In this document: positions 12,634 to 20,097 of the stretch, piece by piece
How the letters are laid out: each line of letters opens with the position of its first letter
Numbering within the stretch: the first letter of the stretch is position 1
Source: Thermoanaerobaculia bacterium
GTDB lineage: Bacteria > Acidobacteriota > Thermoanaerobaculia > UBA5066
Assembly: GCA_963816185.1 (NCBI GenBank)
Contig: CAWFJJ010000028.1
Coordinates: 256,001-320,000, forward strand
Direction: 5' to 3'
Length of the DNA: 64,000 bases
Program-made: the position numbers and the translations under genes
The notes under the pieces: generated by a model
The model's input: the letters and a program-made list of their open reading frames with translations, nothing else
The model's database searches: none
Told to the model about the DNA's origin: nothing

Positions 12634-12918
12634 ATGAAGACAGGCCGCCGTAGGAGCAGGTCTTCGCCGGGGGTCGTCCCACTCAGGGACCTCGTCCCCC
12701 GAAACGACCCCAAGGGGGGCATGGCACAGAAGACGGTCTTCGGCGAAGGTCCCCCGGTTCTCGAGACAGAGGAGAAGCAGCCTTTCACGACGTTCGGGCC
12801 GAACGAAGGCGGAAGCCGGGTCACGGCCAGAACAGGGAGAAAGGAGAAGCGAAATGAAAAAGGCCACGAAGAATTCCCCGAAGGTCTCTCACAAGAAGGC
12901 GAAGGACCTCGAGGTTAA
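12634..12918 (+). CDS. Array-associated small protein A (PLRDLVPRNDPKGG)
   Basis: Paralog at 19215..19439 in an equivalent position. Confidence 0.55.
   Translation: MKTGRRRSRSSPGVVPLRDLVPRNDPKGGMAQKTVFGEGPPVLETEEKQPFTTFGPNEGGSRVTARTGRKEKRNEKGHEEFPEGLSQEGEGPRG
12792..12833 (+). repeat. 42-nt stem-loop element, copy 1
   Basis: GTTCGGGCCG-AACGAA-GGCGGAAGCC-GGGTCA-CGGCCAGAAC just upstream of the RBS. Confidence 0.85.
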
Positions 12919-12997
12919 GCCTGCCAAGGGCGGCACGGTTCGTGGAGGGCTCGGAGGGAGCCACGGAGACGACACCCCAATAGAAAGTCGTCGTTGA
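12854..12997 (+). CDS. GG-leader peptide 1, tail LGGSHGDDTPIESRR
   Basis: Translated by hand: MKKATKNSPKVSHKKAKDLEVKPAKGGTVRGG; AAGGAG RBS. Confidence 0.85.
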   Translation: MKKATKNSPKVSHKKAKDLEVKPAKGGTVRGGLGGSHGDDTPIESRR

Positions 12998-13102
12998 CGC
13001 GCGAAGACCTGTATCACTCGTAGCAAGGTTACCGTTGCTGTCGATGGCTTTTGGAAGGCAGTAGCCTGCTCGCGGCCAAAACAGGAAGTAAGGAGACACG
13101 AC

Positions 13103-13234
13103 ATGAAGACCAAGAAGAAGAGCGCCCCGAAGGCTTCCCACAGGAAGGCGGTCAGAAATCTCGACATCAAGCCCGCCAAGGGTGGGACGGTGCGTGGAGG
13201 AAGGAAAGCAGGCGAAAAACCGCTGGAGTTTTGA
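13103..13234 (+). CDS. GG-leader peptide 2, tail RKAGEKPLEF
   Basis: MKTKKKSAPKASHRKAVRNLDIKPAKGGTVRGG; AAGGAG RBS. Confidence 0.85.
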   Translation: MKTKKKSAPKASHRKAVRNLDIKPAKGGTVRGGRKAGEKPLEF

Positions 13235-13336
13235 GTATCAGCGACAATTGAAGTCGCCGCTGCCGGCGAGGTCGTTTCACGCCGTAGAAGGGCTCGCCCC
13301 TCAGGCAGCACATTCCTGCGGCAGCTTTCATCGGAT

Positions 13337-13378
13337 GTTCCGGCCGAACGAAGGCAGAAGCCGGGTCACGACCGAAAC
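13337..13378 (+). repeat. 42-nt stem-loop element, copy 2
   Basis: GTTCCGGCCGAACGAAGGCAGAAGCCGGGTCACGACCGAAAC. Confidence 0.85.
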
Positions 13379-13397
13379 AAGAAAGAGGAGAAACGAC

Positions 13398-13529
13398 ATG
13401 AAGAAGACCACGAAGAAGAGCCCCTCGAAGGCCTCTCACAAGAAGACGGTCAAGGACCTCGACGTCAAGCCCGCCAAGGGTGGGACCGTTCGTGGGGGCT
13501 TCCCGACGCCATGGAGAAGCAAGCCCTAA
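13398..13529 (+). CDS. GG-leader peptide 3, tail FPTPWRSKP
   Basis: MKKTTKKSPSKASHKKTVKDLDVKPAKGGTVRGG; GAGGAG RBS. Confidence 0.85.
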   Translation: MKKTTKKSPSKASHKKTVKDLDVKPAKGGTVRGGFPTPWRSKP

Positions 13530-13570
13530 GGCCGCTCGAAATGACGCGGCATCCAGAAAGGAGCAGCGAC

Positions 13571-13663
13571 ATGAAGAAGGCTACGAAGAAAACCCCCTCG
13601 AAAGCCTCTCAGAAGAAGGCGGTCAAGGACTTCGACGTCAAGCCCAGCAAAGGGGGAACGGTT
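13571..13663 (+). pseudogene. GG-leader peptide 4, cut by the IS just before RGG
   Basis: MKKATKKTPSKASQKKAVKDFDVKPSKGGTV followed directly by the IS left end. Confidence 0.85.
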
Positions 13664-13713
13664 TGAATCGCCCCGGCATTTCCGGAGGCTCCAACACTTG
13701 AGAGGATGGAGCG

Positions 13714-14034
13714 ATGGGAAGACGAGGCAGATACCCGGCGGAGGTCAAGGAGCGGGCCGTGCGGCTGGTCTTCGAGCAGCAGTCGGAGCACGGCTCGCAG
13801 TGGGCGACGATCAGCTCGATCGCGGGCAAGATGGGCTGCACGCCCGAGACGCTGCGGAGCTGGGTCAGGCAGGCCGAGCGAGACAGCGGCGCACGGCCCG
13901 GACTGACGACGTCAGAGCGTGAGCGGCTCAAGGAGCTCGAGCGTGAGGTCCGCGAGTTGCGGCGAGCCAACGAGATTCTGAAGAAGGCCTCGGCGTATTT
14001 TGCGCAGGCGGAGCTCGACCGCCGAGCGAAGTGA
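13714..14034 (+). CDS. IS3 transposase OrfA
   Basis: HTH followed by [26 protein letters not shown]. Confidence 0.95.
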
Positions 14035-14945
14035 TGGTCAATTTCGTCGAGGAGAACCGAGCCTCGTATGGGGTCGAGCCGATCTGCGCGATGCTGCCGA
14101 TCGCCCTGGCGACGTACTACGAGCGAAGGGGCCGAAGGCTCGACCCTCACAAGCGCCCGGCGCGCGCCAAGAGTGACGAAGCGCTGGTGAGCGAGATCCA
14201 GCGCGTCTACGACGAGAATCAAGAGGTCTACGGAGCCGAGAAGATCTGGCGGCAGCTGGGGCGCGAAGGCAAGCTCGTGGCGCGCTGCACGGTCGAGCGA
14301 CTGATGAGGACGATCGGCCTTCGTGGAACGGTCCGGGGCCGTGCCTTCAAGGTCACGACGACACCCGACAAGCTCGCCATACGGCCCCCGGACCTCGTCG
14401 AGCGGCGGTTCGAGGCCGACGCCCCAAATCAGCTCTGGGTCGCTGATCTGACCTATGTGGCCACGTGGGCAGGCTTCGTGTATGTGGCATTCGTCATCGA
14501 CGTCTTCGCCCGCTTCATCGTCGGCTGGCGGGTGTCGCGCTCTCTTCGCAGCGATCTGGCGCTGGACGCCCTCGAGCAGGCCCTGTACTTCAGGCCTCAT
14601 ACCGAGAGGCTCGTCCGCCACAGCGACCGTGGCGTGCAGTACCTCTCGATCCGCTACACCGAGCGCCTCGCCGAGGCCGGCATCGAACGCTCGGTCGGAA
14701 GCGTGGGCGACTCATACGACAACGCGCTGGCCGAGACCATCAACGGCCTCTTCAAGACCGAGGTCATCCGGCGTCGCGGGCCCTGGCGAAATATCGACGA
14801 AGTGGAAATTGCTGTTCTGGAATGGGTCGACTGGTTTAACAACCGAAGGTTTCTCGGTCCCATCGGCTACGTGCCCCCGGCCGAGTACGAGGCGGCCTAC
14901 TATCGCAGTCAGGAAACCCCAGCCGCAGTGGCTGGACTCAGATAA
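14031..14945 (+). CDS. IS3 transposase OrfB (DDE)
   Basis: [30 protein letters not shown]. Confidence 0.95.
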
Positions 14946-15026
14946 ACAGGTCTCCGGAGAACCCGGGGCGTTTCACAAGCCCTAAGGCCGCTCGAAATGA
15001 CGCGGCATCCAGAAAGGAGAAACGAC

Positions 15027-18939: not shown

Positions 18940-19064
18940 CCTCGGCTGTCGGCCTGCCTCAGGTCCCCTCGCCTGTCACAAGCACCCGCGCCTCCCCCGG
19001 CGCGGCCTCCGCCTCGGGGAGCGACCTCCCCGGCTCGATACGCTCGACGACGCCGAGGCCCGCG

Positions 19065-19123
19065 ACGGCGCCGCCTCGGAATGAGCCACTCGAAACGATG
19101 CAGCATCGCATCGAAACGAGACA
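19065..19123 (+). promoter_or_regulatory. Putative upstream activator sequence of array 2
   Basis: Copy of 12228-12286. Confidence 0.6.
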
Positions 19124-19174
19124 GGTCGGTCCGAGATAGGCGCCGCTGAGGGCTTGAGACCGCTTCTCAGCCTA

Positions 19175-19189
19175 CGGCATGGCGTTTGC
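19175..19189 (+). promoter_or_regulatory. Sigma-54 -24/-12 promoter of array 2
   Basis: CGGCATG-GCGT-TTGC, preceded by the same CGCTTCTCAGCCTA as in array 1. Confidence 0.7.
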
Positions 19190-19214
19190 CTTCCGTTCAG
19201 CCGGCCATAGTGCG

Positions 19215-19439
19215 ATGAACACACGCCGCCGCAGGACAAAGCCGCCGCCGGGGGTCGTCCCCCTCAGGGACCTCGTCCCCCGGAACGACCCCAAGGGGGG
19301 CTCGGCCGGGAAGACGGTTTTCGGCGAGCGTCCCCTGGTCACCGAGACAGAGGAAAAGCAGCACATTCAGGATGTTCCGGTCGAACGAAGGCGGAAGCCG
19401 GGTCACGGCCGAAACAGCACGAAAGGAGAAACGACATGA
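19215..19439 (+). CDS. Array-associated small protein B (PLRDLVPRNDPKGG)
   Basis: Paralog of 12634..12918; its stop overlaps the ATG of peptide 7 (ATGA). Confidence 0.55.
   Translation: MNTRRRRTKPPPGVVPLRDLVPRNDPKGGSAGKTVFGERPLVTETEEKQHIQDVPVERRRKPGHGRNSTKGETT
19374..19415 (+). repeat. 42-nt stem-loop element, copy 4
   Basis: GTTCCGGTCGAACGAAGGCGGAAGCCGGGTCACGGCCGAAAC. Confidence 0.85.
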
Positions 19440-19597
19440 AGACCACGAAGAAAACCCCCTCGAAGCCCGCTCACAAGAGGGCGATCAAGGACCTTGACGT
19501 CAAGTCCGTCAAGGGCCGCACGGTTCGTGGGGGAATCGTGAAACTTGTCGACGCGGACTCTCCCAAACTCCACGATACGCCCGTGAAGGGCGGGTAA
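19436..19597 (+). CDS. GG-leader peptide 7, tail IVKLVDADSPKLHDTPVKGG
   Basis: MKTTKKTPSKPAHKRAIKDLDVKSVKGRTVRGG; AAGGAG RBS. Confidence 0.85.
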   Translation: MKTTKKTPSKPAHKRAIKDLDVKSVKGRTVRGGIVKLVDADSPKLHDTPVKGG

Positions 19598-19713
19598 GGA
19601 CTGAAGCAACTCGAACACCACACCGCTTCCCGCGAGCGCAAACATGGTCCGGCGCCGGAGGTCTAGAGCGGCTCGTCGGGTCACGCCCGAAACAGGAAGT
19701 AAGGAGACACGAC

Positions 19714-19866
19714 ATGAAAAAGACCACGAAGAAAAGCCCCTCGAAGGTTTCTCACAAGAAGGCGGCCAAGGACCTCGCCGTCAATCCCGCCAAGGGCAGG
19801 ACGGTCCGTGGAGGCCTTGGAAGCGTCGAGGGAGAGTCGATTCGCAAAGGTCACAGTCCAGATTGA
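19714..19866 (+). CDS. GG-leader peptide 8, tail LGSVEGESIRKGHSPD
   Basis: MKKTTKKSPSKVSHKKAAKDLAVNPAKGRTVRGG; AAGGAG RBS. Confidence 0.85.
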   Translation: MKKTTKKSPSKVSHKKAAKDLAVNPAKGRTVRGGLGSVEGESIRKGHSPD

Positions 19867-19894
19867 CTACGGGAGGAATTAGCCCTCTCAGGAC

Positions 19895-19936
19895 GTTCCG
19901 GCCGAACGAAGGCAGAAGCCGGGTCACGACCGAAAC
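19895..19936 (+). repeat. 42-nt stem-loop element, copy 5
   Basis: GTTCCGGCCGAACGAAGGCAGAAGCCGGGTCACGACCGAAAC. Confidence 0.85.
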
Positions 19937-19956
19937 GGGAAGAAAGGAGAAAAGCC

Positions 19957-20097
19957 ATGAAGAAGACCACGAAGAAGACCGTCTCGAAGGCTTCTCACAA
20001 GAAGGGAGTCAAGGACCTCGACGTCAAGCCCGTCAAGGGCGGGTCGGTCCGTGGAGGGAGCTTGTACCCGGGTTACCCCAAGGACAAAACGGAATAG
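19957..20097 (+). CDS. GG-leader peptide 9, tail SLYPGYPKDKTE
   Basis: MKKTTKKTVSKASHKKGVKDLDVKPVKGGSVRGG; AAGGAG RBS. Confidence 0.85.
   Translation: MKKTTKKTVSKASHKKGVKDLDVKPVKGGSVRGGSLYPGYPKDKTE

Follow-up and report, generated by a model that had tools for sequence, protein, structure and literature searches.

Two arrays of small genes with a Lys-rich double-glycine leader in a Thermoanaerobaculia genome are candidate satellite operons of a dispersed peptide precursor family with Hcp-like cores

We analysed a 64,000-nt stretch of DNA, referred to here as the window, from the genome of a Thermoanaerobaculia bacterium (assembly GCA_963816185.1; 5.09 Mb in 30 contigs; G000). The window spans positions 256001 to 320000 of contig C28 (CAWFJJ010000028.1) and carries a set of tiny genes whose products have in common a Lys-rich leader ending in Gly-Gly (GG), followed by a short core that differs from gene to gene. 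We favor the interpretation that these genes truly belong to a family of exported peptide precursors not described before, and that the genes for processing and export lie elsewhere in the genome. On balance, we consider it likely that they make up two satellite operons of a dispersed precursor family that is under sigma-54 control, whose products would be modified under the guidance of a recognition element (RRE) of the type found in ribosomally synthesized and posttranslationally modified peptide (RiPP) pathways and exported by a C39 transporter, and whose cores derive from the type VI secretion system (T6SS) tube protein, Hcp.

The first-pass annotation of this region had counted ten such genes between 12854 and 20097. 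We found nine open reading frames (ORFs) with a Lys-rich leader there, all on the plus strand, which we refer to as type-1 precursors: precursor 1 (12854 to 12997, 47 aa), precursor 2 (13103 to 13234, 43 aa), precursor 3 (13398 to 13529, 43 aa), precursor 4 (13571 to 13666), precursor 5 (15027 to 15158, 43 aa), precursor 6 (15307 to 15444, 45 aa), precursor 7 (19436 to 19597, 53 aa), precursor 8 (19714 to 19866, 50 aa), and precursor 9 (19957 to 20097, 46 aa). Precursor 1 was assigned from its ORF and the leader profile, and precursors 3, 5, 7, and 9 were assigned from their ORFs and leader comparison; the core of precursor 3, FPTPWRSKP, belongs to the same class as that of the gene at C6:17322. 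The first 31 to 34 residues of all nine ORFs fit the leader consensus proposed earlier, MKKTTKKSPSKASHKKxVKDLDVKPAKGGTVRGG. An AGGAG-type ribosome-binding site is located 6 to 9 nt before the ATG in 9/9 copies, as had also been noted. The earlier statement that V(R/K)GG is kept in nine intact copies was right about the motif, as the intact copies keep VRGG, and wrong about the number: eight copies are intact, and precursor 4 is cut off after KGGTV, with its stop codon 14 nt before the arm of an IS3-family insertion sequence (IS).

When we searched all six reading frames of the complete genome with a leader profile, we obtained 28 matches with E values of 6e-21 to 2e-6. Because the next best match had an E value of 1.9, the leader pattern is far beyond chance. 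The copies comprise the nine in the window, an array of 16 on contig C6 (C6:13960-22232), and single genes at C6:73671, C12:20331, and C29:455871. Leaders are 31 to 37 residues long, and cores are 6 to 28 residues long. In 25 aligned leaders, M1, K6, K11, L21, V31, R32, G33, and G34 are invariant; the GG pair thus marks the leader-core junction in 25/25, and the likeness ends right after it, as reported previously. The cores had been described as hypervariable. We found that they form conserved classes, many of them Hcp-like, that recur among the window, C6, a sister species (G011), and other phyla.

Among 16 leaders of 34 aa (120 pairs), the mean nonsynonymous rate (dN) was 0.20 and the mean synonymous rate (dS) was 0.61, giving a dN/dS of 0.33, i.e., purifying selection rather than neutral drift. 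The invariant residues R32, G33, and G34 are each encoded by three to four different codons. These results bear on the alternative that the copies are decaying, nonfunctional repeats, that is, pieces of genes that IS elements and recombination have scattered and that no longer yield a product. The position of the window arrays in a nonsyntenic region with two IS3 copies and a resolvase gene, the truncation of precursor 4, and a split gene for the HlyD adaptor in this genome are what such decay would leave behind. Yet decay is hard to reconcile with the leader dN/dS, the use of several synonymous codons for invariant residues, the ribosome-binding site kept in all nine window copies, the core classes common to the sister species and other phyla, and the abundance of short leader-bearing peptides in protein databases, and we regard it as very improbable. 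As to abundance, a profile search against 1.84 billion representative proteins gave 58 leader-matching clusters at E ≤ 1e-3, of which 57 are 42 to 81 aa long and the 58th, at 260 aa, resembles an ORF call that spans an array. From the selection pattern, we infer that the small ORFs are translated. The leader had no match in Pfam or NCBIfam, and six of the peptides gave 0 NCBIfam families at E ≤ 0.01. A literature search, which subscription journals and supplements lay outside, returned no published account of the leader, of the Cys-rich enzyme family described below, or of Hcp-derived cores.

The 16-gene array on C6 (locus L001) lies directly downstream of genes for a PpiC-like protein, a C39 exporter, an HlyD adaptor, and a sigma-54 activator. 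The exporter (C6:8407-11589, 1060 aa) has two PF00027 cyclic nucleotide monophosphate (cNMP) stretches as well as PF03412 (E = 1e-32), PF00664, and PF00005. Its C39 part contains the catalytic QxxxxDCG, NHW, and D motifs, and over residues 347 to 1055, it matches PCAT1 (E = 2e-115); both PCAT1 and ComA are matched along their full length. The PpiC-like protein has weak matches to PF13145 and to TIGR04500 ("peptide maturation"). The activator (C6:12858-13763, 301 aa) consists of an AAA+ domain and an HTH only and is receiver-less. Within the C6 array, we identified genes for two paralogues of a ~390-aa Cys-rich protein and for a TPR-GT41 glycosyltransferase; further GT41 paralogues are encoded right after the C12 precursor and near the precursor at C6:73671. 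The sister species has the same cassette in the same gene order, with ten precursors and an exporter that is 92% identical. Because the window leaders are of the identical type, the window precursors are predicted substrates of the C6 machinery, and we hold with reasonable confidence that they are leader-bearing peptides handled by the C6 exporter.

As stated in the first-pass annotation, the window offers no such machinery: none of the 28 ORFs scanned at 1 to 35.6 kb encodes a C39, LanM, YcaO, or radical-SAM protein. The genome as a whole has three C39 domains, none of which is on the contig of the window, and 33 radical-SAM matches, none inside C28:256001-320000; no YcaO was found in the genome. 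The sole LanC-like domain is on C29 (C29:448026), far from the arrays, and 0/26 cores contain Cys. We therefore rejected lanthipeptide, YcaO, or radical-SAM processing for the window, and genome-wide it is without support. With a C39 exporter beside the main array of the same leader, common promoter sites, and no family model for the leader, these data agree with the earlier proposal of a new precursor family processed in trans.

The window arrays and the C6 array have promoter-like features in common. Using a pattern scan in which GG and GC were held fixed, we found a sigma-54 −24/−12 promoter-like site at the head of array A (TGGAAC-N5-TTGC, 12339 to 12353, plus strand); the scan together with an alignment of array heads gave a second sigma-54 promoter-like site at the head of array B (CGGCAT-N5-TTGC, 19175 to 19189, plus strand). 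About 60 to 120 nt 5' of each site sits a conserved element that may act as an enhancer for the sigma-54 activator, at 12217 to 12286 in array A and at 19054 to 19123 in array B (plus strand in both; repeat D10, 90% identical), and the array B copy was aligned with the other array heads. The same site and element also head the C6 array (site at C6:13899) and the array of the sister species. The sites are of the GG-N10-GC type of sigma-54 promoters, and the activator has PF00158 (E = 3e-58). A simple scan for sigma-70-like promoters in 12000 to 20400 found none (0 found, 0.6 expected). Because the promoter-like site and the upstream element are common to the C6 array, the window arrays would be under the control of the C6 activator, as satellite operons in its regulon, and are probably both processed and regulated in trans.

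For the Cys-rich protein, we found at least 271 homologue clusters but no Pfam domain. Across 36 homologues, eight Cys never vary, in the order CxxC...CC...C...C...CxxxxC, with about 40 invariant columns in all. In an AlphaFold2 (AF2) model with a predicted local distance difference test score (pLDDT) of 85, residues ~301 to 395 superpose on RiPP leader-binding domains with Z scores of 5.0 to 7.7. The top six structural matches are TigE (Z = 7.7), MccB (7.6), MibB (6.9), ThcOx (6.8), the PbtF RRE (6.8), and TbtB (6.7), and NisB, TbiB1, PqqD, and lasso B1 are among the lower ones. In the model, the C-terminal domain is a probable RRE. The N-terminal domain is probably a metal or Fe-S enzyme that would modify the core, and we put even chances on the Cys-rich protein chemically modifying the cores, of which 25/26 contain Lys. 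A YkgJ cluster was found in the Atlas at rank 10 with a score of 0.82. The 36 homologues gave nothing meaningful against NCBIfam, and the two Cys-rich copies in G000 are not among the three PF03692 matches in this genome.

Relatives of the Cys-rich protein are encoded at 221 genome loci, whose titles name Acidobacteriota, Methylomirabilota/Rokubacteria, Gemmatimonadota, Chloroflexota, Myxococcota, Proteobacteria, Planctomycetota, Bacteroidota, and Firmicutes. For 78 of these loci, we counted the cassette genes within ±10 kb, a range inside which many contigs end. A C39 domain was present at 26 loci (27 to 95% identical), the cNMP part at 24, the PpiC-like gene at 18, and the activator at 14, while GT41 occurred at 1/78 only, the locus of the sister species. 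With a strict pattern, short ORFs with a basic N terminus, [KR][DN]L, ...V[KR]GG, and a short core were detected at 18/78 loci. This distribution is informative about the possibility that the products are unmodified GG peptides of bacteriocin or pheromone type, which the exporter only cleaves and exports, with the Cys-rich protein not an enzyme but a leader-binding chaperone, an immunity protein, or a regulator. Short and diverse cores (6 to 28 aa) without Cys and an N-terminal domain with no assignable catalytic fold or family in our searches would fit such peptides, as would the substrates of peptidase-containing ATP-binding cassette (ABC) transporters (PCATs), given that these substrates are reported to be often unmodified peptides (PMC7018657, PMC7595303). 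What speaks against them is that 26/78 loci from different phyla show linkage between the Cys-rich protein and the exporter, that eight invariant Cys and about 40 invariant columns are the pattern expected of a metal-dependent active site, and that the Cys-rich gene is duplicated inside the arrays of both species. We consider unmodified peptides unlikely and favor a leader that would be bound by an RRE and cores that would be modified.

The same linkage is relevant to the charge of the leader. GG leaders of C39-processed precursors are usually acidic. The leader studied here has a net charge of +7 to +11 and a mean pI (isoelectric point) of 11.0, in agreement with its earlier description as strongly basic, and this departure is the reason to think of a module for nucleic-acid binding or membrane targeting on peptides that act intracellularly. 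The first-pass annotation had raised targeting or nucleic-acid binding as another role of the leader, for which we found no support. The invariant positions are the V-R-G-G junction and L21, not the Lys block; the genes lie in tight linkage with those for a C39 exporter and an RRE-fold protein; and basic KDL...V[KR]GG leaders accompany the same exporter in other phyla. An intracellular role of this kind is thus highly unlikely. Of the positions that would dock to a C39 peptidase, −4 is invariantly Val and −12 is Val, Ile, or Leu, but −7 is Gly or Ser/Ala. In the part of the LahT147 study that describes its C39 groove, the groove takes the leader's Val-4 and Leu-7 as well as its Leu-12, with Leu-7 in a hydrophobic pocket (PMC6363468).

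The T6SS of this genome includes two Hcp genes (C25:474453-474845 and 475110-499) with TssC beside them, and several core classes match Hcp. The core of precursor 2 (13103), RKAGEKPLEF, matches Hcp RKAG..PLE[FY]; cores of the form [IV]HGGWDQ.ANKK[VIY]-stop match the exact C terminus of Hcp, ..GWDVKANKKL-stop; cores TVNKGWIEVSSFSF.. match Hcp ..KKEIEVLSFHF; and cores GKAGSGRTTVSDLQISKVVDKSSAVLF match the Gly-rich loop of Hcp and the next strand. In a shuffle test against the two Hcp proteins of the genome, 8/26 cores had P < 0.05, and for five of these P was 0.002, the lowest value the test could give; the Fisher combined P value was 6e-7. In the window, precursor 2 (P = 0.002) and precursor 6 (P = 0.024) are among these, and precursor 8, whose core is like the N-terminal GVEGES segment of Hcp, had P = 0.078, which is weak alone. 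Using blastp-short with 72 unique cores against all six-frame segments of ≥100 aa, Hcp was the top non-self target, matched by six cores with a best E value of 4e-4, and an Hcp-like stretch on C24 was matched by three cores. With a profile built from 20 Hcp proteins of this bacterial family, 10/72 cores scored ≥5 bits, as opposed to 0 in each of 20 shuffles, and mapped to positions 5 to 159; for 31 unique cores from other phyla, 5/31 scored ≥3 bits vs 0 in 20 shuffles.

Pfam analysis of 32 longer precursors (E ≤ 10) gave PF05638, the Hcp family, as the sole recurring family, with matches in 6/32 (E = 9e-5 to 0.05) that cover 16 to 43 profile positions each (2 to 28, 5 to 20, 14 to 42, 29 to 71, 36 to 67, and 40 to 70). 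At the sequence level, these precursors are Hcp fragments and not members of the family. A nucleotide comparison to the hcp genes gave no match beyond 12-mers, and we therefore take the relationship between cores and Hcp to be old. Altogether, with five independent checks in agreement, it is very likely that the cores are homologous to Hcp segments. We also looked for a full-length fusion of leader and Hcp; a 63-aa precursor query, a weak search, gave two matches at 35 to 38% coverage and no fusion. A specific correlation between the peptide family and the T6SS was likewise rejected: among 61 related genomes, Hcp is present in 29 and the leader in two, both of which have Hcp, and because Hcp is common in the genus (20/28 genomes), its presence does not single out the two leader-bearing genomes. 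In a separate observation, the solitary C29 precursor is followed ~225 nt downstream by an Hcp-family gene.

In the pathway that we propose, the receiver-less sigma-54 activator from C6 would turn on the arrays, including those in the window. The KDL...VRGG leader would be bound by the C-terminal RRE of the Cys-rich protein, and the Cys-rich N-terminal domain, with its eight invariant Cys and a distant YkgJ/CxxCxxCC-like character, would modify the core; in this genus, the TPR-GT41 glycosyltransferase may also act. The C39 domain of the cNMP-gated exporter would then cut after V-R-G-G, and exporter, HlyD, and an outer-membrane partner would release the core outside. The cores would descend from successive Hcp segments and have kept their likeness to them.

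Several observations weigh against this interpretation. The window is without a processing gene, and the trans link rests on common motifs and leader identity. A search of the 61 related genomes detected the leader subfamily in just two of them, G000 and G011. At position −7, the leader has Gly, where LahT147 pockets Leu-7. In G000, the HlyD gene (C6:11590-12791) is split over two overlapping frames, the pieces of which had no Pfam match. Either the assembly is in error here or the exporter is broken; in the related locus L020, the adaptor is intact (400 aa, TIGR01843, E = 3e-38). Concerning the Cys-rich protein, the RRE match at Z = 5 to 7.7 is moderate and in a range that may reflect a common fold only, Foldseek of the whole protein against the PDB gave nothing at E ≤ 0.001, a comparison of the N-terminal domain, modelled alone (pLDDT 88), with 48,161 PDB chains gave no solved relative (best Z = 3.0), and the PF03692 likeness is weak (11/36 homologues, best E = 0.025). 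The cores are very diverse for a single enzyme, and Cys is absent from all 26. Finally, 18/26 cores were singly no better than shuffles against Hcp, and all six PF05638 matches were under the gathering score of 23.5 bits.

A further step from the likeness to Hcp is that the cassette pathway secretes a tiled peptide library that mimics every structural segment of Hcp and could thereby act on T6SS biology. We regard this as doubtful. If it were true, the peptides could disturb the assembly of Hcp rings or tubes in neighbors or signal a T6SS-armed population, and the TPR Ser/Thr kinase encoded between the window arrays could be the signal receiver. Candidate roles of the secreted peptides are antimicrobial, signalling, or as mimics acting on the T6SS.

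Three related small genes were missing from the gene list of the first-pass annotation. One encodes a divergent type-3 precursor (12446 to 12592, plus strand, 48 aa) with a Gly-rich core and a leader ending in KVKGG; its basic N terminus with KDL...VKGG follows the design at the cassette loci in other phyla, and the product has no Pfam/NCBIfam match. The other two are type-2 ORFs on the plus strand. The first (12634 to 12918, 94 aa) has a leader-like sequence, MKTGRRR...LRDLVPRNDPKGG, and overlaps the next precursor, and the second (19215 to 19439, 74 aa) ends in a TGA that overlaps the ATG of precursor 7. Both are copies of a ~220-nt element that precedes many type-1 genes, and the 3' frame of the first differs. 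We identified 11 copies with 80 to 84% nucleotide identity, located in the window (12632 to 12853 and 19213 to 19434), on C12, six times on C6, and twice in L020. In 8/11 copies, the element is an ORF of exactly 74 aa that starts with MKTGRR..PGFVPLRDLVPRNDPKGG and has a TGA overlapping the ATG of the next precursor. For residues 14 to 50, dN/dS was 0.29 in the ORF frame vs 1.30 and 1.39 in the other two frames, and four copies have in common a frame-restoring −1/+1 indel pair. Type-2-related ORFs with a stop codon of their own are present in L029 and L040. Because no Shine-Dalgarno sequence is evident ahead of the type-2 ATG, translation of type 2 is less sure than that of type 1.

We also considered the ~220-nt element as a structured RNA and rejected this possibility: the helices recognized by eye show no compensatory changes, and the codon pattern fits the 74-aa ORF. 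Rfam at gathering thresholds identified only two ALIL pseudoknots in the whole window, both in IS3 copies, and assigned no RNA family to the repeats. We note that the ~45 to 70 nt before type-1 starts (..GAAGCCGGGTCACGRCCGAAACAGGAAGAAAGGAGAAACGAC-ATG) are conserved even without the full 220-nt element, in the window at 12784 to 12853, 13322 to 13397, 15231 to 15306, 19638 to 19713, and 19881 to 19956, and in C6 copies. This stretch could be a common signal for translation initiation or RNA processing.

The IS3-family copy 1 that interrupts array A (13680 to 14980, plus strand) has HTH_Tnp_1 and rve, a 1301-nt repeat arm, and an ALIL pseudoknot at 13992 to 14108. Copy 2 (21300 to 22600, minus strand) forms a 99% inverted repeat with copy 1, and its arm may extend past 22600, the edge of the scan. 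The inverted pair brackets 14981 to 21299 in the manner of a composite transposon; enclosed between the copies are two precursors, a Ser/Thr kinase-TPR gene, array B, and a resolvase gene (20360 to 20977). The region at 23510 to 30000 is syntenic with the sister species, and the region to its left is not; the window arrays, as read from the sequence, are part of an accessory region. The 910-aa Ser/Thr kinase-TPR gene (15747 to 18479) is flanked by two copies of a small Cys-containing ORF (..FCRDCRRIIHVRKGSPGFRACPTPGCTRPTGFG..; 15505 to 15726 and about 18480 to 18690), which are 85% identical over 193 nt (repeat D6) and the first of which has no Pfam match. A ~60-nt stretch at about 23112 to 23175 recurs at at least 15 places in G011 with 83 to 97% identity, many of them at C1:2196-2210 kb, and is classed as a short dispersed repeat.

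Other observations were made away from the window. A second C39 ABC transporter at C29:441365 and the LanC-like domain at C29:448026, which is part of a 1122-aa open frame, suggest a lanthipeptide cluster at C29:441365-449066; the solitary precursor with a Lys-rich leader and an Hcp-family gene (C29:455871-456724) lie 7 to 8 kb beyond. A few kb upstream of the C6 exporter are genes for a QhpG/LodB-like flavin monooxygenase (C6:1814-2980) and an S9 prolyl oligopeptidase (C6:4209-6458). By NCBIfam names, QhpG/LodB proteins are Trp-modifying maturases, and several cores hold Trp or Pro. One PF03692 match (C6:76754-77020, minus strand) lies back to back with the GT41 paralogue near the precursor at C6:73671, and another (C25:445385-445702, plus strand) is separated by about 5 kb from a TssC-like gene in the T6SS region.

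We compared the system with known ones. Like the PCATs PCAT1, ComA, and LahT, it combines leaders that end in GG and have Val at −4 and Val, Ile, or Leu at −12 with a C39 exporter, here with HlyD. Unlike in those systems, the leader is basic, has Gly at −7, and matches no leader model, and most precursor genes are far from the transporter and under predicted sigma-54 control. The order of cNMP-binding, C39, and ABC domains in the exporter is that of HetC of Nostoc PCC 7120. According to a study of HetC, its cNMP domain is needed in vivo and can bind ppGpp in vitro, the substrate of HetC is described as not known, and no GG-leader gene is reported near hetC (PMC10986499). The exporter described here differs in having two cNMP domains and in being followed by an array of candidate substrates.

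A constant leader, diverse cores, and genes scattered over the genome are also typical of the NHLP/Nif11 and prochlorosin families, and prochlorosins are one-enzyme, many-substrate systems. Unlike the NHLP/Nif11 leaders (TIGR03793, TIGR03798), the leader here is unrelated and short, and no LanM, YcaO, or radical-SAM enzyme accompanies it. Among the NCBIfam models, the exporter fits TIGR03796 (NHLP-family export ABC) best, and because it scored 527 bits, under the cutoff of 853.3, the exporter is not of the NHLP family. Over its last ~90 residues, the Cys-rich protein superposes on the leader-binding domains of the RRE enzymes MccB, NisB/MibB, TbtB, and lasso B1, from which it differs in its fused N-terminal domain without a solved relative or family model. 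A Cys-rich fusion is not mentioned in the term-matching passages of a 2025 survey of RRE fusions (PMC12710340).

FliB, as characterized in one study, methylates lysines of flagellin, depends on a [4Fe-4S] cluster, and has eight conserved Cys and a Cys-rich motif related to PF03692 (PMC8598068). The Cys-rich protein resembles FliB/YkgJ in its eight conserved Cys and weak PF03692 likeness; it differs in Cys spacing (CX4CX3CC in FliB vs CxxC...CC) and in having an RRE, which FliB lacks. The likeness is a lead only to the chemistry of the Cys-rich protein. The cores match segments of Hcp (TssD, PF05638) that range from its N-terminal strand up to its exact C-terminal ...GWD..ANKK[VILY]-stop, whereas here these are pieces of 6 to 28 residues behind an export leader, with no Hcp domain. 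As predicted from its genes, the system resembles a PCAT/GG-leader RiPP system with a HetC-type exporter and falls outside the NHLP/Nif11, lanthipeptide, YcaO, and radical-SAM classes.

If the system is borne out, the known ribosomal peptide pathways would gain a leader family, an enzyme family that binds leaders and is without a solved fold, and a multi-phylum cassette. The small genes also provide candidates for the substrates of a HetC-type cNMP-gated exporter. Mimicry of Hcp is the part that could prove categorically new: our literature search found no published description of conserved secreted peptides that copy the tube protein of a secretion system. The Hcp-derived cores suggest either the recruitment of peptide cores from an existing gene or a natural mimicry interaction with type VI secretion.

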